Source: Geopsychrobacteraceae bacterium
GTDB lineage: Bacteria; Desulfobacterota; Desulfuromonadia; Desulfuromonadales; Geopsychrobacteraceae
Direction: 5' to 3'
DNA length: 64,000 nucleotides
NCBI GenBank assembly: GCA_963662315.1
Contig: OY759353.1
Location: 3,808,001-3,872,000, forward strand
In this document: in pieces, positions 43,787-56,781 of the stretch
Numbering within the stretch: position 1 is the first letter of the stretch
Layout: every line of letters begins with the position of its first letter
Notes under the pieces: model-generated
Told to the model about the DNA's origin: nothing
Databases searched by the model: none
The model's input: only the letters and a program-made list of their open reading frames with translations
Made by a program: the position numbers and the translations under genes

Positions 43787-44776
43787 GTGGGTAGTGAAGC
43801 AAAAATATCTGTCTTCTTCTCATGGCAATCTGATTCTTCTAACAAAACAAACCTTAGCTTGATTGAAGATTGTCTAAAGAAGGCAGTAAAAGAAATTTCT
43901 AAAGAAGAATCAATAATTGTCATCGTTGACAGAGACACAAAGGGGGTCGGTGGAACACCTAGTATAGTTGATGCGATTTTGAAAAAAATAAGAAGTTGCG
44001 ATGTATTTGTATGGGACGCAACGATAATTAACGATATGCCAAGACACACACCAAACCCTAATGTTCTTCTTGAACTTGGATATGCACTTGCAATTGTTGG
44101 GGAAGGGAGAATCATTGGGGTCATGAATGAAGCAAAAGGAAATGGCCCGGAAAAGCTACCATTCGATCTAGTGCATAGGCGTTGGCCAATTCGGTACCAA
44201 CTAGATGATTCTGACCCCAAGTTTGAAGAAAATAAAAAAAACACGAAAAATTTTCTTACAAGTACATTTGCAAGGGCACTCAGAGAAGCCATCAAAGAAC
44301 CCAAAATAGGAGCAGTCCATAGTGACATAGATTTTCTTACTGCGAAGGTTCTTTGGGGGTGCATTAATTCTACATGGGTGCAGAACTGGCTCATGTTTAG
44401 AAAAAACAACATTCAATACGATAAACGTGAATATCGTGACAAACTTGAAGATTATTGCGACATCGCCTCAAAGCCGGAAAATAGCTTTTCTGAAAATACC
44501 CTTGGGGAGTTGCACGGAAATTTGATCAATGCCATTCAGGGGTATCTATGGGCCGCTGCAGTTGAAATGGTTCCCTGTTTTGGCAATGAAGATGCCTACG
44601 TTATCAACGCCAAAGATCAAGCTCGGCAACATGGATGGATTGAGAATTATGACGAAATGTACGATCGACAAGTAGGAGAGCTGAGAAAAGGAATTAATGC
44701 AGTAGAAAATGCGTGGGATCTTTATGTGCAGAGTCTCCGGGTTAAATACCCAGAAATTACCCACGACTTAATGTGA
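43787..44776 (+). CDS. TIR-like / nucleoside-deoxyribosyltransferase-like N-terminal domain protein
   Basis: VFFSWQSD...DRDTKGVGGTPSIVDAILKKIRSCDVFVWD...PNPNVLLELGYA; low GC; C-terminal half unrecognised. Confidence 0.65.
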   Translation: MGSEAKISVFFSWQSDSSNKTNLSLIEDCLKKAVKEISKEESIIVIVDRDTKGVGGTPSIVDAILKKIRSCDVFVWDATIINDMPRHTPNPNVLLELGYALAIVGEGRIIGVMNEAKGNGPEKLPFDLVHRRWPIRYQLDDSDPKFEENKKNTKNFLTSTFARALREAIKEPKIGAVHSDIDFLTAKVLWGCINSTWVQNWLMFRKNNIQYDKREYRDKLEDYCDIASKPENSFSENTLGELHGNLINAIQGYLWAAAVEMVPCFGNEDAYVINAKDQARQHGWIENYDEMYDRQVGELRKGINAVENAWDLYVQSLRVKYPEITHDLM

Positions 44777-45030: not shown

Positions 45031-45774
45031 GGAGTTCCGGGGACAGTATATAGATCTTTGACAAAGTCTTGTTTCCTGATAGTCTTTTTCTTATGGCAAG
45101 AATAGCACGAGTTATTGCACCGGGCTTGCCCCATCATGTAACGCAACGGGGCAACCGGCGGCAGACGACATTTTTTTGCGATGAGGATTTTCAGATTTAT
45201 ATCGATCTGATGGCTCATTGGTGTGCCAAGTATCATGTGGATATCTGGGCTTGGTGCCTCATGCCAAACCATGTTCATTTAATTGCGGTGCCAACAGATG
45301 AAGCCGGCCTGGCGCGTGCGATTGGTGAAGCGCATAGACGCTATACCCGACATATCAATTTCCGCCATGATTGGCGGGGTCATCTGTGGCAAGAACGTTT
45401 TGCTTCTTTCCCTATGGACGAAGCCTATCTGCTTGCCGCTGCGCGTTATATAGAAATGAACCCTGTCGCTGCAAACCTGGTCTCTGACCTTGGGCAGTAC
45501 CCCTGGAGTAGTGCGAAAGCGCACCTCAACGACCTGGATGATGGTCTGGTGAACCGCGCTCCACTATTGGATCTGGTTTCAGACTGGCAAAGTTTCCTGA
45601 AGTTAAGTAACGAAGAAGAACTGGAGATTTTGCATAAACATGAGAAAACAGGGCGACCACTTGGGAATTTGTCATTTGTTGAAAGTATCGAAGTTCTATT
45701 AGCACGGACATTGCGGCCTCTGCCACCAGGCCCTAAAAAGAATGATTAGTTCTATATACTGTCCCCGGAACTCC
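45031..45774 (+). mobile_element. RAYT (Y1 HUH transposase) element, copy 1, with 24-bp terminal inverted repeats
   Basis: GGAGTTCCGGGGACAGTATATAGA (45031-45054) and its exact reverse complement (45751-45774); no TSD. Confidence 0.85.
45093..45749 (+). CDS. REP-associated tyrosine transposase (Y1_Tnp), copy 1
   Basis: HHVTQRGNRRQ, CLMPNHVHL (HUH), RYIEMNPV (catalytic Tyr) and YPWSS motifs. Confidence 0.9.
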   Translation: MARIARVIAPGLPHHVTQRGNRRQTTFFCDEDFQIYIDLMAHWCAKYHVDIWAWCLMPNHVHLIAVPTDEAGLARAIGEAHRRYTRHINFRHDWRGHLWQERFASFPMDEAYLLAAARYIEMNPVAANLVSDLGQYPWSSAKAHLNDLDDGLVNRAPLLDLVSDWQSFLKLSNEEELEILHKHEKTGRPLGNLSFVESIEVLLARTLRPLPPGPKKND

Positions 45775-46090: not shown

Positions 46091-46426
46091 TCAAACCTCT
46101 ACGAACTTATTCCCGCTATCAAAATGTTTAACCAATTCCTGTATTAGAAATTCGTAAACCGAATTTGATGCACTATCCGATGGCAAAAAATAGATTTTAG
46201 ATAAGTAATACCTTTTTCCTAAAGCATCATTAACCAGCTTCAAACCTGAAAGAACTTGGTCCAAAACCTGTGCAGAAGAAGTCCTCGCCTTCAAATCATT
46301 TTTAACATCCCATTCTACGACTTCTACAGCGGTTTCTTGTTCAGAAAAACTAACACCTAGAATGTTATCCTGAGAACCCGTCATCCGAGCAACTTTATAA
46401 ACGTTTCCATCTTTTACAAATTGCAT
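46091..46426 (-). CDS. Putative immunity protein for toxin 1
   Basis: 111 aa, low GC, TAATG overlap with the toxin 1 stop. Confidence 0.7.
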   Translation of the reverse strand: MQFVKDGNVYKVARMTGSQDNILGVSFSEQETAVEVVEWDVKNDLKARTSSAQVLDQVLSGLKLVNDALGKRYYLSKIYFLPSDSASNSVYEFLIQELVKHFDSGNKFVEV

Positions 46427-47475
46427 TATTCAACCCCCCAAGGAAAACCTCTCCAACGCCAATCAACTCTGTCATGAGCTTTGCTATAACCAGAATCATA
46501 TTTCAACTCATACCACCTTTCGGCAATTTCATGTTTCATCCATGTGATATCGGCGTCAGTATGTGTTCCGCTTTCTAAGCGCTTCCAAGCCTGAGCCTGC
46601 TCTATCGTACTATCAAATCTTCCTACCGTTGCCGGGATACCCTGATCCACATAACGATCCAGTAAATGCTCGTTATAGAAAACGTGATCTTTTACTTTTT
46701 GAATATTTCCAGGTTTGAAGCCTGTACTTGATGCAATTGCAGAAACATCTGAATCACTTGCCCTTATTGCATCATATAGATCATCTGCTGATGCCGTATA
46801 TCCTCCACCACCAGTTTGTTTTAGTGGTGAAGTGTTGTTTGCAATATAGCGACGTATCAGCGCTTGTTGTTCGCCACGCTCCAAACTGGAAATATCTGCT
46901 GGAATCATAATTGAATCAGCCTGATAACGCGAATACCAATTTGCAGCTGCCGCTTTTACTTGTTTATTCGTTTCCTCACCGGATTTCTTATCCGGCTTGG
47001 CCTGTTTTATTTCCTGTTTCTCAGTAGCTTTCAGACCCTGATTGTCCACAGTTTTGACAACATTCCTTGATAAAGATCTCTGCTGGCTGTGGGTTTGCGG
47101 GGCCATGATTTTACTATAAGCAGATGAGACTATTCCCTGCAGGTTTTCATATTGGTTTATTCCTGACAGGCTGGCGACCCAGCGGCCTTTTTGGGGATTG
47201 TTCGGGTAGTCAGGGTCCTGCTGCCAGTAGACGACCCCCAAGAAGGGGAGCTTCATAGAGTAGACGAGGCAGACTTCCATCTTGTCAATTTTTTTTAGCA
47301 GCTCATCAAGCCCCTGTTGATAATTGCGCCACTGGGCAGGAACGAATTCGTTTAGATTATGAATGCTGGTAAAACCGTCACAATAGGCGTCACGGACATC
47401 GTTTTTAGCGAAAAACGGATTGGAAATATACGGCAGGTCAGCAACCGTAATATCTCTGGCAGCAACAAGTCTCAT
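46426..47475 (-). CDS. Polymorphic toxin 1 (shared N-terminus, C-terminal HExxE...H-type domain)
   Basis: First about 135 aa nearly identical to the 49662 and 55642 ORFs; unique C-terminus KDHVF..H..RFD..AWKRL..KHEIAE..GYSKAH. Confidence 0.75.
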   Translation of the reverse strand: MRLVAARDITVADLPYISNPFFAKNDVRDAYCDGFTSIHNLNEFVPAQWRNYQQGLDELLKKIDKMEVCLVYSMKLPFLGVVYWQQDPDYPNNPQKGRWVASLSGINQYENLQGIVSSAYSKIMAPQTHSQQRSLSRNVVKTVDNQGLKATEKQEIKQAKPDKKSGEETNKQVKAAAANWYSRYQADSIMIPADISSLERGEQQALIRRYIANNTSPLKQTGGGGYTASADDLYDAIRASDSDVSAIASSTGFKPGNIQKVKDHVFYNEHLLDRYVDQGIPATVGRFDSTIEQAQAWKRLESGTHTDADITWMKHEIAERWYELKYDSGYSKAHDRVDWRWRGFPWGVE

Positions 47476-47987
47476 CGGTATCCCCCCTCAAGGATAAAAT
47501 AAGTTGCTATAAGAAATAACTATCTGGAAAGTTTTAATGAGAGGAGAGGATAGCGTTTTTTTAGCTTGAGTCAAGATGTTTAGCAGGAATTTTAAGGGCG
47601 GTCTTTTCAACTCGGGATCAATTTTCAGAAGTTATCTTAGATAAAATCACATCAAAACCGCCGGGTCCCGGCCCGGCAGCCGGATTCATTTTTTCCAGCG
47701 ATGAAAAAACGAATCAAAAAAATCTTTTAAGGTCAAACACACTGACGATAGTCGATTCGGTCTACACTTTATCGTTGCTACCAGCAGTGAACAGCCCGCC
47801 CAACGATGCTATTGCATCCATGGGCAGAACCGAATTAAAGTGAATACATAAAAATGCCAACGGCATTTTTGCGGTTCTGGCCATCAGGCGCGTATTGCGC
47901 TTACTATTTGTCGCCCGCTTGGGACAAATAGTAAGGCGTTGTGCGGGGCGCAACACCGCGACCGTGCTTGTTTCATTTCAATCATAG
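47476..47987. repeat. Upstream non-coding region of the toxin unit, copy 1 (truncated, with an internal deletion)
   Basis: Near-identical to 50799-51633 and 56782-57615; contains hairpin repeats and a minus-strand TTGACT-16-TATCCT promoter-like sequence at 47547-47574. Confidence 0.9.
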
Positions 47988-48731
47988 GGAGTTCCGGGGA
48001 CAGTATATAGATCTTTGACAAAGACTTGTTGCCTGATAGTCTTTTTCTTATGGCGAGAATAGCACGAGTTATTGCACCGGGCTTGCCCCATCATGTAACG
48101 CAACGAGGCAACCGGCGGCAGACGACATTTTTTTGCGATGAGGATTTTCAGATTTATATCGATCTGATGGCTCATTGGTGTGCCAAGTATCATGTGGATA
48201 TCTGGGCTTGGTGCCTCATGCCAAACCATGTTCATTTAATTGCGGTGCCAACAGATGAAGCCGGCCTGGCGCGTGCGATTGGTGAAGCGCATAGACGCTA
48301 TACCCGACATATCAATTTCCGCCATGATTGGCGGGGTCATCTGTGGCAAGAACGTTTTGCTTCTTTCCCTATGGACGAAGCCTATCTGCTTGCCGCTGCG
48401 CGTTATATAGAAATGAACCCTGTCGCTGCAAACCTGGTCTCTGACCCTGGGCAGTACCCCTGGAGTAGTGCGAAAGCGCACCTCAACGACCTGGATGATG
48501 GTCTGGTGAACCGCGCTCCACTATTGGATCTGGTTTCAGACTGGCAAAGTTTCCTAAAGTTAATTAACGAAGAAGAACTGGAGATTCTGCATAAACATGA
48601 GAAAACAGGGCGACCACTTGGGAATTTGTCATTTGTTGAAAGTATCGAAGTTCTATTAGCACGGACATTGCGGCCTCTGCCACCAAGCCCTAAAAAGAAT
48701 GATTAGTTCTATATACTGTCCCCGGAACTCC
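47988..48731 (+). mobile_element. RAYT element, copy 2, with 24-bp terminal inverted repeats
   Basis: TIRs at 47988-48011 and 48708-48731. Confidence 0.85.
48050..48706 (+). CDS. REP-associated tyrosine transposase, copy 2
   Basis: Near-identical to copy 1; intact HUH and Tyr motifs. Confidence 0.9.
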   Translation: MARIARVIAPGLPHHVTQRGNRRQTTFFCDEDFQIYIDLMAHWCAKYHVDIWAWCLMPNHVHLIAVPTDEAGLARAIGEAHRRYTRHINFRHDWRGHLWQERFASFPMDEAYLLAAARYIEMNPVAANLVSDPGQYPWSSAKAHLNDLDDGLVNRAPLLDLVSDWQSFLKLINEEELEILHKHEKTGRPLGNLSFVESIEVLLARTLRPLPPSPKKND

Positions 48732-49101
48732 CGGTCAGATAGAGCGGTCGTCGAAAGGCAACGATCTCCATCGCCGCTTTGCAGCGCGGGCAGCGGAACA
48801 CCGGTCGTGATCGCACGGGAATCGGTTCGAGCATGACGCGCAGAACGTACTGTACCAAACGCAGAGTTCTTTTGGCGTTACCGTGCAGAAAACCATAATC
48901 CCGCACCCGGCGAAACCCTTTTGGGAGAACATGCTGGAGGACCAGCCAGAGAAAGTCTTCCCCCTTCAGGGTGAGGGTCTGCTCTTGCTGGGTCTCGCTG
49001 TCGCGATAGCGGAAAGTCACCTTTCCTTTTTGGCAGGAGATGATGTTGTTCTCGGCAATCACACCGCGATAGAGGTAGCGCGACAGATATTTCAGGGCCG
49101 T
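48732..49101 (-). pseudogene. IS91-family (Y2) transposase C-terminal fragment
   Basis: ALKYLSRYLYRG, VTFRYRD, FLWLVLQHVLPKGFRRVRDYGFL and CPRC motifs; bounded on both sides by RAYT end motifs. Confidence 0.8.
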
Positions 49102-49116
49102 GGAGTTCCGGGGACA

Positions 49117-49241
49117 TCCATTTCTTTATTAGTAATCCCTTTTTCCTGCTTGAGGGCCATCAAGGATTCAAACTCTGCGCTTGCCAATGACCTTAGCTGA
49201 TCTGCTTGCTGAGAGTTAACGAGTAGCCTACTGTTTGGAAC
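49117..49241 (-). pseudogene. Orphan toxin-tip fragment (same tip as 55012-55220)
   Basis: VPNSRLLVNSQQADQLRSLASAEFESLMALKQEKGITNKEM, cut by GGAGTTCCGGGGACA at 49102-49116. Confidence 0.65.
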
Positions 49242-49244
49242 AAC

Positions 49245-49652
49245 CTACAATTCGATAATCACCTCAGAGTTAAATGATTCAGGCATTTGAAGAAATCTTC
49301 TCCATGCAGTAACTACGGCCTTAAATTCAGCAAGTGAAAATCTTCCTTCTGGCTGCCCAACCCATTCATCATTTACATTTATATCAACTTGAATACCATT
49401 TTGGGAAATTAAGACATCCACGTCATTTCCTTCTATATCAGACTCACTTTCGTGCCCTTCCTCTATCATTTCAACTTCAGCCAATACTCGATCACAATCA
49501 TCAATAGACTGAGCAATGCAACTTAAAATATTGGCGAGATATCGCTGATATCTCGCCACATCCTGACCATCTATAAACTCCTGGCACTGATGATAAACTT
49601 GTCCCAACACAGGATGGTTTCCACCATCAGCATAATAAAGCTTTAACTTCAC
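49245..49652 (-). CDS. Putative immunity protein for the EndoU toxin
   Basis: 135 aa, acidic, immediately downstream of toxin 2, GAGGTG RBS. Confidence 0.72.
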   Translation of the reverse strand: MKLKLYYADGGNHPVLGQVYHQCQEFIDGQDVARYQRYLANILSCIAQSIDDCDRVLAEVEMIEEGHESESDIEGNDVDVLISQNGIQVDINVNDEWVGQPEGRFSLAEFKAVVTAWRRFLQMPESFNSEVIIEL

Positions 49653-49661
49653 ATTGCACCT

Positions 49662-50798
49662 CTAAGGTTTCTTTGGCGTTTGATATACCGGATAAACAGT
49701 TGTTTTTGGTGAAATCCAACCCTCGACTTTGACACCGGAAGGCGTAACTGAAATCCACTTATCACCTTGAACAATCTTATTCGGGTCATTCCAAGCTGCA
49801 TCAACTTCTGTTTTAACACGGATTTCATCCCAACCTTTGGGAAACATCGTATTAGTAGAATTATTGCTAGTCTTAGTTATCCACTGTCCCGGATTCGCCG
49901 GATCGGGAACTTGAATCGTAGCTTTATATACATCTGCAACATCAGGCACCGATTCAGTTCTGGGGACAATTCGGACATCACCGTAGAGCAAAGTATGACC
50001 GCCAGTCGGTTTACCTTTTTTCGTGTAGTCAGCTTTCAATACGTGATCAAAATCTACTGGTGATTGCTGAACGTACTTGTTTGGAACAACTATCTCACCA
50101 GCAGATGATACTACAGGCCCCATCGAAAGTCCAAGCCCAGCTCTCAAACCACCAGCGGTCAACGCTGTGCCAACAACGTCATTTGTCTCAGCAGGCGTCT
50201 GAGAAAGTCGCATGCTGTAGGTACTTGCAAAGTCAGTTTGCTTAAATGCAGTAGCCTCTTGCAATACTTGATCGCCTCTTTCGGTCTCCTCAGGCCTTGC
50301 CATCACCTGCTTCTGGCCCAAAAAATTGCGTCTGCCGCCTTTGACACTGTTCTCAAACCCTTGGTTGACCACCGCTTTGGCTGTGCTGCTTTGCAAAGAT
50401 CTCTGCTGGCTGTGGGTTTGCGGTACCATGATTTTACTGTAAGCAGATGAGACTATTCCCTGCAGGTTTTCATATTGGTTTATTCCTGACAGGCTGGCAA
50501 CCCAGCGGCCTTTTTGGGGATTGTTCGGGTAGTCAGGGGCCTGCTGCCAGTAGACGACCCCCAAGAAGGGGAGCTTCATAGAGTAGACGAGGCAGACTTC
50601 CATCTTGTCAATTTTTTTTAGCAGCTCATCAAGCCCCTGTTGATAATGGCGCCACTGGACAGGAACGAATTCGTTTAGATTATGAATGCTGGTAAAACCG
50701 TCACAATAGGCGTCACGGACATCGTTTTTAGCGAAAAACGGATTGGAAATATACGGCAGGTCAGTAACCGTAATATCTCTGGCAGCAACAAGTCTCAT
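49662..50798 (-). CDS. Polymorphic toxin 2 with a C-terminal bacterial EndoU nuclease domain
   Basis: Shared N-terminus; after VVPN: FDHVL...TGGH...K...NTMFPKGW...TVYPV. Confidence 0.8.
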   Translation of the reverse strand: MRLVAARDITVTDLPYISNPFFAKNDVRDAYCDGFTSIHNLNEFVPVQWRHYQQGLDELLKKIDKMEVCLVYSMKLPFLGVVYWQQAPDYPNNPQKGRWVASLSGINQYENLQGIVSSAYSKIMVPQTHSQQRSLQSSTAKAVVNQGFENSVKGGRRNFLGQKQVMARPEETERGDQVLQEATAFKQTDFASTYSMRLSQTPAETNDVVGTALTAGGLRAGLGLSMGPVVSSAGEIVVPNKYVQQSPVDFDHVLKADYTKKGKPTGGHTLLYGDVRIVPRTESVPDVADVYKATIQVPDPANPGQWITKTSNNSTNTMFPKGWDEIRVKTEVDAAWNDPNKIVQGDKWISVTPSGVKVEGWISPKTTVYPVYQTPKKP

Positions 50799-51633: not shown

Positions 51634-52318
51634 GGAGTTCCGGGGACAGTATATAGATCTTTGACAAAGACTTGTTGCCTGCTAGTCTTTTTCTTATGGC
51701 GAGAATAGCACGAGTTATTGCACCGGGCTTGCCCCATCATGTAACGCAACGGGGCAACCGGCGGCAGACGACATTTTTTTGCGATGAGGATTTTCAGATT
51801 TATATCGATCTGATGGCTCATTGGTGTGCCAAGTATCATGTGGATATCTGGGCTTGGTGCCTCATGCCAAACCATGTTCATTTAATTGCGGTGCCAACAG
51901 ATGAAGCCGGCCTGGCGCGTGCGATTGGTGAAGCGCATAGACGCTATACCCGACATATCAATTTCCGCCATGATTGGCGGGGTCATCTGTGGCAAGAACG
52001 TTTTGCTTCTTTCCCTATGGATGAAGCCCATCTCCTTGCCGCTGCGCGTTATATAGAAATGAACCCTGTCGCTGCAAACCTGGTCTCTGACCCTGGGCAG
52101 TACCCCTGGAGTAGTGCGAAAGCGCACCTCAATGACCTGGATGATGGTCTGGAGAACCGCGCTCCACTATTGGATCTGGTTTCAGACTGGCAAAGTTTCC
52201 TAAAGTTAAGTAACGAAGAAGAACTGGAGATTTTGCATAAACATGAGAAAACAGGGCGACCACTTGGGAATTTGTCTTTTGTTGAAAGTATCGAAGTTCT
52301 ATTAGCACGGACATTGCG

Positions 52319-54944
52319 GAGGGTGTAAAATCCTTTGTGTAAATAGACCCAGTCGGTTACAACCCGTAACCACTGGAGGAACCACAGATGTCTATACCTG
52401 ACGACCTGCTTGATAGCCTGATGAAGGACTACAAAAACCCTGAAGATCTCATTGGGGAAACCGGGCTGCTGAAACAACTGACAAAAAAACTTTTGGAGCG
52501 GGCGATGCAAACCGAGATGACCGATCACCTCGGCTATGAAAAAAACGCTCCGACTACTAATAAATCCGGCAATACTCGTAACGGAAGTTACCAGAAAAAG
52601 ATCAAGGGTGAGTTTGGAGAACTTGATATTTCTGTTCCCCGAGACCGGGATGCCAGCTTTGAACCAGCTATCCTCCCCAAAGGGCAAAGCCGATTTTCTG
52701 GCTTTGATGATAAAATCATCGCTTTGTATGCTCGCGGCATGACCACCCGCGACATCCAGGCACACTTGGAAGAAATCTATGGGGTTGAGATTTCACCGAC
52801 GCTGGTTTCTCAGGTAACCAAGGCTGTTCAGGAGGAGGTTGTTCTGTGGCAGAATCGCCCCCTTGATGATGTTTGGCCAATCGTCTACCTTGATGCTCTT
52901 CGCGTCAAGGTTCGGCAGGATAACCGAGTCATAAATAAAGCTGTCTATCTTGCTGTTGGTGTCAATCTTGACGGCGTGAAAGAGGTTCTAGGCATGTGGA
53001 CTGCCGAGAATGAAGGAGCCAAATTCTGGCTGCAGGTCGTCACCGAATTGAAGAACCGTGGGGTCAAGGATATCTTCATTGCCTGCGTCGACGGACTGAA
53101 GGGATTTCCTGAAGCGATAGAGGCCGTCTTCCCGAAAACGCAGGTTCAGCTCTGCATCGTCCATATGGTTCGGCACAGCCTGAACTACGTCTCTTGGAAA
53201 CAACGCAAGGAAGTCGCTGCCGACTTAAAAACAATCTATTCAGCGGCGACACTGGAGGAGGCTGAGTACCACCTGGAACTCTTCGGAGATAAATGGGATT
53301 CCAGCCATCCTACAATCAGCAAATCATGGCGAAACAACTGGGAGCGGATTACTCCGCTGTTCTCTTATCCGCCAGAGATCCGAAAGGCAATTTACACGAC
53401 CAACGCCATTGAGTCGGTAAATATGTCGTTGAGGAAGGTAATGAAGAACCGAGGTTCGTTCCCCAATGACGAGGCCATGTTTAAGCTGATGTATCTGGCT
53501 TTACAGAATATTGCCAAGAAATGGACAATGCCGATCCGTAACTGGCGATCGGGTAGTGTTCAAAATTCTGTGTCAATTCGTTACTATCATCACAACCAAA
53601 GGAATGACACATGACTCAACCCAAAATCACCTTCGATCTAGACGCTGCTCTTGCGGCCTTGCGTGAAGGCAAGGATCTCAACGGCAAAGACGGGATTCTC
53701 ACTCCGCTGATCAAGCAGCTTACAGAAGCCGCCATACAGGCCGAACTTGATGAGCACTTGGCCAATGAGGAAGGCCCGAATCGCAAAAACGGTAAAACGT
53801 CAAAAACAATCAAGTCCCTCTCGGACAGTTTTATTCTTGATACTCCGCGTGATCGCGCCAATACCTTTGAGCCCCAGCTGGTTAAAAAAAATCAGACTCA
53901 GCTTACCGATGAGTTGGAGCGGAAAATCATTGCCCTGTTTGCTCTTGGTACGAGCTATCAGGATATTCGGCAACATGTCTCCGACATGTATGGAATTTCC
54001 GTTTCCAACGGCACAATTAACGCCGTAACCGACAAGCTCTTGCCGGACCTGCAAGCCTGGCGAGAGCGCGATCTTGAAGCGATTTATCCGATCCTCTGGC
54101 TGGACGCTATCCACTACAAGGTCAAGGAAAACGGCCGTTATATCGGTAAGGCGATCTACACCATCCTGGGCCTGAACATCGAAGGCAAGAAAGAGCTTCT
54201 CGGACTCTATCTCTCCGACAATGAAGGGGCACACCACTGGTTAAGCGTTCTTACCGATCTGCATAACCGCGGGGTACAGGACATTTTGATCGCATGTGTC
54301 GATGGCCTCAAGGGTTTCCCCGAAGCTATCGAAAGCATCTATCCGAATACTGAAATCCAGCACTGCGTCATCCACCAGATTCGCAATTCGATCAAGTATG
54401 TAGCCTCAAAGAATCAAAAGGCCTTCATGGCTGATCTGAAGTGTGTCTACAAGGCAGCGACCCTCAACGCAGCGGAGCTGGCTTTGGACGACTTGGAATC
54501 GAAATGGGGTGAGAAGTATCCCATGGTCATTAAGTCTTGGCGCAGTAAATGGCCGACCTTATCCAACTATTTCAAGTACCCCGATTACGTCCGGACAGCC
54601 ATCTATACCACCAATGCTGTGGAGGCGGTTCACCGACAGTTCCGCAAACTGACCAAGACAAAGGGTGGCTTCGCCAATGAAAACAGCTTGCTGAAGCTGC
54701 TTTACGCTGGCATACTCAAGGCCTCCGAGCGTTGGACACATCCGATTCAGAACTGGAATCTGACGCTGGCTCAGCTGACCATCCATTTTCCGGGTCGGCT
54801 GGAAAAACATCTCAGTCTATGAGCCTGACACAGAATCCTGAACACCCTCGGCGATCGGCACTGAATCAGTTTTCGATTATATTTGAAGGGCGGATGCCAC
54901 TGCTCTAACCGACGGGGCATTTACACAATCTGCTTTACACCCTC
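52319..54944 (+). mobile_element. IS256-family element (outer); transposase 52388..54908 disrupted near its C-terminus
   Basis: IRL GAGGGTGTAAAATCCTTTGTGTAAAT and matching IRR ending at 54944; 8-bp TSD ACATTGCG at 52311 and 54945; VPRDR, CVDGLKG, QLCIVH and TTNAIE motifs. Confidence 0.93.
53552..54849 (+). mobile_element. IS256-family element (inner) with intact transposase 53611..54822
   Basis: IRL GGTAGTGTTCAAAATTCTGTGTCA and IRR TGACACAGAATCCTGAACACCCTC; 8-bp TSD GGCGATCG at 53544 and 54850; TPRDR, CVDGLKG and TTNAVE motifs. Confidence 0.93.
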
Positions 54945-55011
54945 ACATTGCGGCCTCTGCCACCAGGCCCTAAAAAGAATGATTAGTTCTATATACTGTC
55001 CCCGGAACTCC

Positions 55012-55220
55012 TCCGGCATAAAACCTTGTTGATTGTTGCGGTGAATCTGCGAGATTTTTCCTGTTTTCAGATCCATTGCAACGGAAAGTGCAGGCCCCAT
55101 TTCTTTATTAGTAATCCCTTTTGCCTGCTTGAGGGCCATCAAGGATTCAAACTCTGCGCTTGCCAATGACCTTAGCTGATCTGCTTGCTGAGAGTTAACG
55201 AGTAGCCTACTGTTTGGAAC
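55012..55220 (-). pseudogene. Orphan toxin-tip fragment, possibly the start of a YwqJ-like deaminase
   Basis: VPNSRLL...KEMGPALSVAMDLKTGKISQIHRNNQQGFMP, cut by the RAYT right end; no proper start or RBS of its own. Confidence 0.6.
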
Positions 55221-55222
55221 AA

Positions 55223-55642
55223 TCAATTATTTACATTCAAACACGATGGAATTTTTCCGTTTGTCTTTAAAAAGCTTAAACATATTTCGCGAACAGTCTC
55301 TATATCATCAATTAAGCTCCGATCATTCTGAAATTGTCCCAATATAGCGATATTTTTAGCATCTTTATCTGGGTTATATAATCGGTAAATTAATCGATCT
55401 CCTTCAGAGTCAACTTCGCTACATTCCACATAACATTTCCCTGCATCACAACTTACGTTAAGACTGCATTCGCCAGGCTCATCTTCCTCTCCTTTCCAAA
55501 GGGATAGAAAGCCATTATTTGAGTACACCGAATCTAACCGTGCAAAAACTTCTCTTTCAGTTGGATTTTTCAGCATTGTACTTTGGTTCCGTTCTCCAGA
55601 GGGTGAATAAACAAACCCTCCTATGCTCAGTTGTTCGATCAT
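55223..55642 (-). CDS. Putative immunity protein for the deaminase toxin (Imm1-like)
   Basis: 139 aa, TAATG overlap with toxin 3; acidic, C-terminal D.E.V.E....F...G pattern. Confidence 0.72.
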   Translation of the reverse strand: MIEQLSIGGFVYSPSGERNQSTMLKNPTEREVFARLDSVYSNNGFLSLWKGEEDEPGECSLNVSCDAGKCYVECSEVDSEGDRLIYRLYNPDKDAKNIAILGQFQNDRSLIDDIETVREICLSFLKTNGKIPSCLNVNN

Positions 55643-56781
55643 TATTCAGCCTTTGACTTAATAATTTTAAACTTGCTCATACCTGGCTCCCAATAATAAG
55701 TTTTCGGGAGGCCCGTTTTATTACTTAAAGAACGAACAGTTAAACTAGTGTATTCGTCTTTAATTGCAGCTTGCACAAGATCTTTTTGGCAAAAACCACA
55801 AACATCAAGACCATCTACATCCATTACAACATTTGAACCTTTCCCAACACCGGAATTTCGAATTTGCTGAGCCACTCCGATTTCAGCATGAGCATTTGCC
55901 ATATTGCTATTTGGATACCCACCTTCTCGTAGAGGTTTAGCCTCAACGAATTCTGAAATAAACGTTTTCTGATTCGCATCCGCTCCCAATCTAAGAGTTG
56001 GATTGATATCTTCAAATAGTTGATCGCCTACTTTTGCTCGAGCTCTAACAGATAATTCAGTGTTTGGAACCACTCTTCCACCAGCAGATGATACTACAGT
56101 CCCCTTCGAAAGTCCAAGCCCAGTTCTCAAACCACCAGCGGTCAACGCTGTGCCAACAACGTCATTTGTCTCAGCAGGCGTCTGAGAAAGTCGCATGCTG
56201 TAGGTACTTGCAAAGTCAGTTTGCTTAAAAGCAGTAGCCTCTTGCAATACGTGATCGCCTCTTTCGGCCTCCTCAGGCCTTGCCATCACCTGCTTCTGGC
56301 CCAAAAAATTGCGTCTGCCGCCTTCGACACTGTTCTCAAACCCTTGGTTGACCACCGCTTTGGCTGTGCTGCTTTGCAAAGAGGCCTGCTGGCTGTGGGT
56401 TTGCGGTACCATGATTTTACTGTAAGCAGATGAGACTATTCCCTGCAGGTTTGCATATTGGTTTATTCCTGATAGGCTGGCGACCCAGCGGCCTTTTTGA
56501 GAATTGTTCGGGTAGTCAGGGTCCTGCTGCCAGTAGACGACCCCCAAGAAGGGGAGCTTCATAGAGTAGACGAGGCAGACTTCCATCTTGTCAATTTTTT
56601 TTAGCAGCTCATCAAGCCCCTGTTGATAATTGCGCCACTGGGCAGGAACGAATTCGTTTAGATTATGAATGCTGGTAAAACCGTCACAATAGGCGTCACG
56701 GACATCGTTTTTAGCGAAAAACGGATTGGAAATATACGGCAGGTCAGCAACCGTAATATCTCTGGCAGCAACAAGTCTCAT
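55642..56781 (-). CDS. Polymorphic toxin 3 with a C-terminal nucleic-acid deaminase-like domain
   Basis: Shared N-terminus; after VVPN: PNSNMANAHAEIG...VCGFC (HxE...CxxC zinc motif). Confidence 0.8.
   Translation of the reverse strand: MRLVAARDITVADLPYISNPFFAKNDVRDAYCDGFTSIHNLNEFVPAQWRNYQQGLDELLKKIDKMEVCLVYSMKLPFLGVVYWQQDPDYPNNSQKGRWVASLSGINQYANLQGIVSSAYSKIMVPQTHSQQASLQSSTAKAVVNQGFENSVEGGRRNFLGQKQVMARPEEAERGDHVLQEATAFKQTDFASTYSMRLSQTPAETNDVVGTALTAGGLRTGLGLSKGTVVSSAGGRVVPNTELSVRARAKVGDQLFEDINPTLRLGADANQKTFISEFVEAKPLREGGYPNSNMANAHAEIGVAQQIRNSGVGKGSNVVMDVDGLDVCGFCQKDLVQAAIKDEYTSLTVRSLSNKTGLPKTYYWEPGMSKFKIIKSKAE

Follow-up and report, generated by a model that had tools for sequence, protein, structure and literature searches.

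A very rare N-terminal domain that defines a small polymorphic toxin class in a Geopsychrobacteraceae bacterium, a candidate tag for type VI secretion

The window analysed here, a 64,000-nucleotide (nt) stretch of contig OY759353.1 from a Geopsychrobacteraceae bacterium whose genome is a single 4.71 Mb contig, carries three toxin genes whose proteins open with the same 135 residues and close with different ones. We call residues 1-135 of these proteins the head and their variable C-terminal part the tail. The head is a real, selected and very rare domain and defines a small polymorphic toxin class. By analogy with described markers we give about even chances to its being a new export tag of polymorphic toxins, most likely read by a type VI secretion system (T6SS), and in this proposed way of working its closest analogue is PIX, a domain of Enterobacterales toxins.

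The head domain and its tails

The three genes are coded on the minus strand (the plus-strand translation of 47070-47475 is full of stops) by open reading frames (ORFs) at 46426-47475 (toxin 1, 349 residues), 49662-50798 (toxin 2, 378 residues) and 55642-56781 (toxin 3, 379 residues), each of which starts MRLVAARDIT. Their parts are:

47071..47475, minus strand: head of toxin 1 (residues 1-135), from translation; 96% identity to the toxin 2 head, no Pfam or NCBIfam match
46426..47070, minus strand: charged linker and C-terminal domain of toxin 1; departs from toxins 2 and 3 past about residue 135, with no Pfam family above cut-off
50394..50798, minus strand: head of toxin 2, from translation; the query sequence for the genome and library searches
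50079..50393, minus strand: second-tier linker of toxin 2 (residues 136-240, to VVPN), from the identity to toxin 3 per bin; repeat family D9
49686..50054, minus strand: EndoU nuclease domain of toxin 2 (PF14436, E 2.6e-12, residues 249-371)
56377..56781, minus strand: head of toxin 3, from translation and identity to the toxin 2 head
56062..56376, minus strand: second-tier linker of toxin 3, repeat family D9, from the identity to toxin 2 per bin
55666..56058, minus strand: deaminase domain of toxin 3 (PF24241 Deam_C, E 3.1e-36, residues 242-372)

An earlier note on this sequence had described a domain common to all three toxins with two tiers of crossover behind it, and the measured identities bear out both points. 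Residues 1-135 are 95-96% identical among the three proteins. Both tiers are real, because identity in 30-nt bins drops at two separate places: toxin 3 remains 87-100% identical to toxin 2 up to nt 720 (residue 240, ending in VVPN) before falling to 23-50%, their common stretch extending about 105 residues beyond the head to the VVPN joint, and toxin 1 departs from toxin 2 at nt 390-450 (67, 57 and 37%), just past QQRSL. The Gly/Ala stretch before the joint, likewise correctly described as mildly hydrophobic, reaches only 1.33 in its best 19-residue Kyte-Doolittle window and thus forms no clear membrane helix.

Eight copies of the head are found genome-wide: three in the window, three at 4.206-4.213 Mb, one at 3.992 Mb and one at 0.349 Mb. 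All eight start M[RK]LVAARDIT with an in-frame stop four codons upstream. The VVP[ND] joint is common to five of them, while toxin 1 and the copy at 3.992 Mb have the early break and a Lys/Glu-rich linker, and the copy at 4.213 Mb represents a third class of break (nt 450-510). Behind this one head stand at least six different tails among the eight paralogues. Besides the EndoU and deaminase domains, Pfam assigns an RNAse_A_bac tail to two copies (one below cut-off) and a Colicin-DNase and WHH tail to one; no Pfam family is found on the tails of toxin 1 and two other copies.

The head itself is unrecognised, as the earlier note had it. No Pfam or NCBIfam family covers residues 1-135 at E≤1, the family profile has 0 matches to PDB sequences at E≤10, and the ESM Atlas yields no usable match. 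Pfam delivery domains (PAAR, DUF4150, Rhs, LXG, WXG, MuF and others) are absent from the window toxins at E≤1 and from the other five at E≤0.1, in line with what had been stated for PAAR, Rhs, LXG, WXG and MuF and with no confident match to DUF4150. Keyword searching of the literature, which cannot detect a sequence motif, returned no description of the domain. Structure prediction and a fold search, both proposed in the earlier note for residues 1-135, gave neither a reliable model nor a fold match: the AlphaFold2 models reach a mean pLDDT of 53.0 (15-row alignment) and 50.5 (18-row alignment), from which only the rough order of secondary structure is usable, and Foldseek with the first model (pLDDT 53.0) found no match in the PDB at E≤0.001 (best probability 0.06).

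The head is also extremely rare. A phmmer search of 1.84 billion representatives returned nine proteins, five from this genome and four distant (E 7e-5 to 8e-4), none of them tied to Enterobacterales; the four that are traceable derive from a Rhodocyclales metagenome-assembled genome (MAG) or from metagenome/Logan assemblies. A profile search of 5.8 billion clusters (longer proteins only) returned 12 proteins, seven of our own and five foreign. The head occurs in none of 232 other species genomes of the bacterium's own order, six other species of its genus included, and in none of 400 other sampled genomes of the order that holds the Rhodocyclales MAG. Within the family of that MAG it is present in 3 of 400 other genomes, and in 5 of the 22 genomes of the betaproteobacterial genus to which those three carriers belong (the G788 genus). 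Metagenome scans with the homologues P0015 and P0009 found nothing.

The distant homologues, from a few betaproteobacterial genomes, are 20-33% identical to the head and preserve a motif DLPxIExPFFA. Nine columns are invariant in an 18-row alignment (L14, P20, A23, L59, L70, P77, W84, G97 and W99), and the mean ratio of non-synonymous to synonymous substitution (dN/dS) over the 135 head codons is 0.28 for 28 paralogue pairs. A dN/dS of this size together with nine invariant columns at such low identity indicates that the head is kept by selection, beyond chance or recent duplication. WP_051287935.1 from Photobacterium halotolerans shares its linker and tail with the homologue P0014 and has an N-terminus in register with the head; with an hhalign E-value of 0.03 and a probability of 1.6% it is not counted as a member of the family. 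Its N-terminal part has no relatives outside its own cluster, and the protein is not listed in the eight supplementary files of the RIX paper (PMC10435454).

The homologues collected are fused to varied toxin tails, which answers the possibility, raised in the earlier note, that they might never be joined to toxin domains. In every full-length case the same head precedes a different tail, and the recognisable tails are toxins or a cell-wall hydrolase: P0010 ends in a WHH nuclease and P0015 in CHAP and PG_binding_1 domains, and one unnamed tail domain is common to P0008, P0009 and P0014. Foreign members with the WHH/colicin-DNase tail have SUKH and Imm49 neighbours, and in one foreign member the tail is followed by a TsiV-family protein. 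SUKH, Imm49 and TsiV are immunity families of inter-bacterial polymorphic toxins.

Cassette layout and exchange of tails

Each of the eight copies stands in a cassette of similar layout. A leader of about 185 nt is common to all eight and contains a G-rich ribosome-binding site, with the Shine-Dalgarno-like run GAGGGGGG directly before the ATG, and promoter-like hexamers (TTGACT-16-TATCCT) are likewise kept in all eight. A GC-rich terminator-like hairpin repeat lies 5' of the leader in seven of the eight (repeat family D10, five copies in 40000-64000). On the other side of the toxin, a small ORF follows each of the eight genes, and DUF6985 proteins stand behind copies in the 4.2 Mb cluster. 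In the window these elements are:

47547..47574, minus strand: putative promoter-like site TTGACT-16-TATCCT upstream of toxin 1, from a consensus scan
47653..47729, no strand assigned: GC-rich terminator-like hairpin repeat at the upstream cassette edge, repeat family D10, terminator-like on both strands
46091..46426, minus strand: candidate immunity gene of toxin 1 (111 residues), an ORF abutting the toxin stop; no Pfam match, role predicted from position only
49245..49652, minus strand: candidate immunity gene of toxin 2 (135 residues), an ORF 10 nt past the toxin stop; only a sub-threshold UPF0231 match
55223..55642, minus strand: candidate immunity gene of toxin 3 (139 residues), DUF6911 (PF21852, E 1.2e-13), overlapping the toxin stop
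49095..49244, minus strand: orphan toxin C-terminal remnant starting exactly at VVPN (VVPNSRLLVNSQQ...), immediately past the immunity stop, with 96% identity to 55097-55231 (repeat D13)
54921..55226, minus strand: second orphan C-terminal remnant, an ORF with the translation (L)IVPNSRLLVNSQQ...; no Pfam match

The two remnants, one immediately downstream of the toxin 2 immunity gene and one of that of toxin 3, start precisely at the joint, (V/I)VPNSRLLVNSQQ..., and are the footprint of an older tail displaced when a new tail-immunity module recombined at VVPN. Each cassette is autonomous, in the order terminator-like hairpin, promoter-like site, ribosome-binding site, toxin and immunity gene. 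New C-terminus and immunity modules would be swapped in by recombination at about residue 135, at about 150-170 or at VVPN at 240, and the swaps would leave displaced remnants behind. CdiA and Rhs toxins have orphan C-terminus/immunity arrays and a fixed joint such as VENN. The present loci resemble such arrays in having a fixed joint, VVPN, for tail exchange and displaced remnants that start exactly at it. However, their constant part is 135-240 residues on a protein of 340-400 residues, with no giant filament or Rhs cage, and no VENN, Rhs or haemagglutinin repeat occurs here.

Together these features place the family among polymorphic toxin systems, in the sense in which Zhang et al. are said to have used the term in 2012. 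A conserved N-terminus precedes variable C-terminal toxin domains in paralogues and homologues alike; an immunity-type gene lies downstream, its protective role predicted from position and family; and displaced orphan tails are found behind the immunity genes of toxins 2 and 3.

Delivery of the toxins

Were the head an export tag read by a T6SS, this constant part would dock non-covalently onto a secreted component of the machine, most likely the spike (VgrG/PAAR) by analogy with PIX and WHIX, the variable tail, be it a nuclease, deaminase, RNase or cell-wall hydrolase, would be injected into adjacent bacteria, and the product of the downstream gene would keep sister cells safe. The window ORFs that were scanned include no secretion genes, as previously noted; a complete T6SS lies elsewhere in the genome at ~18-45 kb, comprising TssA, B, C, Hcp, E, F, G, ClpV, J, K, L and M together with two VgrG, TagF, FHA and DUF2169. 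TssC is present in six of seven carrier genomes and TssF in four of the five tested; for the five carriers of the G788 genus the corresponding counts are five of five and three of three tested. The phage-type tube gp19, by comparison, occurs in only two of the seven.

The tails supply more specific evidence. The unnamed tail domain of P0008, P0009 and P0014 recurs in a Chromatiales MAG as a fusion to a PAAR motif (L033, PF05488, E 2.7e-19), which argues that the head replaces a T6SS spike-tip domain before the same toxin, and the CHAP and PG_binding_1 tail of P0015 argues for export. At the level of sequence, the PAAR fusion, the TsiV-family neighbour, the cell-wall hydrolase tail and an acidic N-terminus unlike the signal of extracellular contractile injection systems (eCIS) all point to a T6SS. 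The earlier note had suggested a new trafficking domain or a marker for a secretion system encoded elsewhere, for example a T6SS; the unmatched head, its varied toxin tails and the complete T6SS elsewhere in the genome agree with this suggestion, while export, the T6SS as the reading machine and the docking site are what we infer from them. The PAAR-motif gene itself (L033:1795-2978, JALTPW010000885.1) appears frame-broken, in that the tblastn match passes the end of the open frame.

Several observations weigh against a T6SS as the machine. The Rhodocyclales MAG (G061) has two intact toxin-immunity loci, and no TssC, Hcp or TssF was found in this assembly, which may be incomplete; it does encode a full eCIS (Pvc16_N, sheath, two tubes, GPD, gp25/Baseplate_J, AAA and an eCIS_core protein). 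None of the eight copies in our genome is near any T6SS gene, and one of them lies ~800 nt behind a phage-type sheath and gp19 tube. The carriers form three independent lineages, two with a T6SS and two with some phage-type tube. In the G788 genus TssC is common irrespective of the head (17 of 22 genomes; five of five carriers and 12 of 17 non-carriers, hypergeometric P 0.23). In the family, a base rate of 118/401 set against three of four carriers gives P 0.08, a value confounded by kinship, and we discount this enrichment because all three positives fall in one T6SS-rich genus. The AlphaFold models of the head (pLDDT 53 and 50.5) lend no structural support.

Part of this evidence bears on a different machine, with the head acting as the loading tag of a phage-type contractile injection system (CIS), either an eCIS or an orphan trio of beta-helix, sheath and tube genes, rather than of a T6SS; we regard this as improbable. 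A sheath (PF04984/PF17482) and a gp19 tube (PF06841, E 2e-43) precede the copy at genome position 349208, G061 has the full eCIS and no T6SS marker found, and the presence of PF06841 in two of seven carriers is not trivial because none of 14 control genomes matches. An eCIS hypothesis was raised early by the neighbours at 0.349 Mb, and was demoted on four grounds: no Pvc16_N was found in our genome, its sole gp25 is TssE, tblastn with the ORFs of two eCIS clusters recovers only the sheath and two tube genes, and gp19 is absent from all five G788-genus carriers (Pvc16_N from all three tested). By the neighbourhood measure for eCIS cargo (within about ten genes of an eCIS core), sheath and tube adjoin one of the eight copies and the genome holds no full eCIS; in G061 the toxins and the eCIS are on separate contigs. 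The trio recurs in the sister species G004 at 95-97% nucleotide identity without any toxin behind it, and, as with the other seven, the copy beside it in our genome is preceded by a terminator-like hairpin and a promoter-like site of its own.

Nor do the N-terminal features of the head fit the published eCIS signal, which is described as a short and disordered segment of very high hydrophilicity and slight positive charge that lacks a conserved sequence (PMC11297309). The two are alike in being N-terminal determinants on toxins without a Sec signal, and one head copy adjoins a sheath and tube. In contrast to that signal, the head has a strongly conserved motif and a negative charge over residues 6-21 (net 0 in one of 18 sequences and -1 to -3 in the other 17). 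Hydrophilicity is not strong in the own copies, with a Kyte-Doolittle sum over the first 50 residues of -7.3 to -1.7 as compared with -36.9 for Pdp1 (PMC11297309), and the three window toxins lack eCIS_core/DUF4157 (PF13699) at E≤1.

The trio itself is intact and consists of a DUF1565 beta-helix protein, a short phage-type sheath of 526 residues and a gp19-type tube at G000:C1:344000-348400 (L011:5321-9398; G000 is the genome studied here), its counterpart in G004 lying at L046:7191-11426. No baseplate, spike, cap or ATPase gene of a CIS is detectable anywhere in G000, and a second, lone gp19 tube gene stands at G000:C1:1048024-1048425 among unrelated genes. It is something of a long shot that this orphan trio is a minimal, previously unrecognised toxin-launching device whose cargo the head marks, or that the tag is common to eCIS and T6SS.

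No single known machine was found in all carriers, which leaves some room for the head to serve another route or step, be it an unrecognised export pathway or receptor binding and translocation for uptake, as in lysis-released colicin- or pyocin-like bacteriocins. We consider this unlikely, though it deserves real weight. The head sequences have no signal peptide-like hydrophobic N-terminus; conservation is highest over the first 25 residues (DLPxIExPFFA), where the confidence of prediction is low, as would be the case for a linear docking motif; and the mildly hydrophobic Gly/Ala segment before many tails, here and in the Rhodocyclales homologues, could aid membrane crossing. However, the loci scanned, in our genome and around homologues, have no lysis gene or dedicated exporter beside them, both the TsiV neighbour and the fusion of the P0008, P0009 and P0014 tail to PAAR point to a T6SS, and, judged by colicin architecture, 135 residues would be short for receptor binding and translocation combined.

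Lastly, the head might not be a trafficking device at all and might act in the producer, for example as the sensor or regulator of a defence-type toxin-antitoxin pair or as a chaperone-binding segment. The cassettes do lie among mobile elements and defence genes (an ABC-3C system by the 4.2 Mb cluster, a weak TIR-like match at 43787-44776), and export of the head-bearing toxins is our inference. Against such a role, a CHAP and peptidoglycan-binding tail (P0015) would be senseless in the cytoplasm, the SUKH, Imm49 and TsiV families are those of inter-bacterial polymorphic toxins, and the tail of P0008, P0009 and P0014 is elsewhere fused to PAAR; we therefore hold this to be very improbable. Between the machines, parsimony still favours the T6SS, which requires a single miss in one MAG that may be incomplete; a CIS would require misses in five genomes and an incomplete system in a closed genome.

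The head can further be set beside the known N-terminal markers, of which WHIX, MIX and FIX are carried by polymorphic T6SS cargo effectors and bring about their loading onto the spike (WHIX, PMC12135965; MIX and FIX as cited). PIX, in Pantoea and other Enterobacterales, is described as an N-terminal domain of about 140 residues, for which secretion and VgrG binding were shown experimentally, with a further homologous stretch behind it that is dispensable for secretion, with colicin-like, HNH and CdiA-CT-like tails, and with orphan loci by transposases that carry the immunity gene directly downstream and come, in that account, from one order only (bioRxiv 10.1101/2023.07.16.549128). The head matches this description in domain length, extra stretch, kinds of tail, downstream immunity gene, orphan loci by transposases and restricted distribution. 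It differs in that the library searches detect no sequence relation, the comparison being with the description of PIX only, and in that VgrG binding and secretion are experimental for PIX, whereas the head is known from sequence alone.

RIX, from Vibrionaceae and Moritellaceae, is described as an arginine-rich motif of 55 residues that marks orphan polymorphic T6SS effectors at their N-terminus and replaces PAAR or VgrG before shared tails (PMC10435454). Like RIX, as so described, the head would be a taxonomically restricted N-terminal marker, and it stands in for PAAR before a shared tail; unlike RIX, it has about 135 residues with four arginines in the first 55 and occurs in other phyla and classes. 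WHIX is bipartite, with about 450 residues and a WHxxxH motif (PMC12135965); the head is far shorter and lacks this motif. MIX and FIX are widespread and the head is extremely rare, a distinction drawn from their descriptions only. Detectable homology to such abundant families (PIX, MIX, FIX) is moreover argued against by the two very large searches, which were near-empty (9 and 12 proteins). One homologue (L059:10358-11005, G593:C10) has only 215 residues, with the head and a short tail but no toxin, and has hemY on one side and a ComEC-like gene on the other; it represents either a copy in decay or a head-only protein of a kind with RIX-only adaptors.

N-terminal markers (MIX, FIX, RIX, PIX, WHIX) are the main means of finding orphan secreted toxins and of following cargo recognition. 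The head would add a new and very rare one, present in one species of its order and in a few betaproteobacteria, and its rarity lends support to the view that many further lineage-specific tags for delivery have so far gone unseen. At least four tails without a known family are flagged by it as candidate new toxins, and it offers a compact, 135-residue handle on cargo recognition. With its T6SS and eCIS signals in conflict, it also lends itself to the question of whether one cargo tag can serve related contractile machines.

Mobile elements and neighbouring genes

Three near-identical RAYT genes alternate with the window toxin cassettes, and RAYT copies also lie within 1-2 kb of the head copies at 0.349, 3.992 and 4.210 Mb. 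It is possible that this REP/RAYT repeat system and the toxin-immunity cassettes spread together. The window copies, 98-100% identical over a 300-nt reference segment (repeat family D1), are:

45069..45749, plus strand: RAYT-type Y1 transposase beside cassette 1; translation near-identical to the 48026-48706 copy, this copy not itself scanned with Pfam
48026..48706, plus strand: RAYT-type Y1 transposase between cassettes 1 and 2 (PF01797 Y1_Tnp, E 5.9e-14)
51672..52328, plus strand: RAYT-type copy that separates cassettes 2 and 3, with two IS256-type genes behind it; translation, repeat D1

The third RAYT ORF is eight residues shorter than the other copies and is adjoined by IS256-like transposase genes at 52388-53614 and 53611-54822 (408 and 403 residues), whose family was assigned by eye; a similar gene at L011:17573-18844 is the only one with a Mutator-family match. 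At 48709-49062, past the toxin 2 cassette, a 117-residue fragment matches only positions 119-179 of 183, the C-terminal end of a Y2 transposase family, and looks like a truncated mobile-element gene. The 4.2 Mb toxin cluster is interleaved with three identical IS110-family transposase genes and adjoined by the ABC-3C system (CTD6, MC2 and an AAA/SMC-like ATPase; L009:2202-5606, equivalent to G000:C1:4197202-4200606). Just beside the toxin island in the window, a gene at 43787-44776 (329 residues) has a sub-threshold match to a CAP12/Pycsar TIR effector (E 2.5e-4, 21.5 bits against a cut-off of 24.7) and is possibly a defence gene.

The gene content of the window otherwise comprises citrate lyase, oxaloacetate decarboxylase, GatA/B, GlnE and similar housekeeping functions. 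Within it, a 140-residue ORF at 38678-39100 matches only positions 3-127 of the 289-position DHDPS family and is probably a truncated or frame-broken gene. Among the foreign loci, the G788 homologue has directly upstream, in the same orientation, a giant ORF of at least 2728 residues with 21 PATR repeats (L058:11787-19973, G788:C23).

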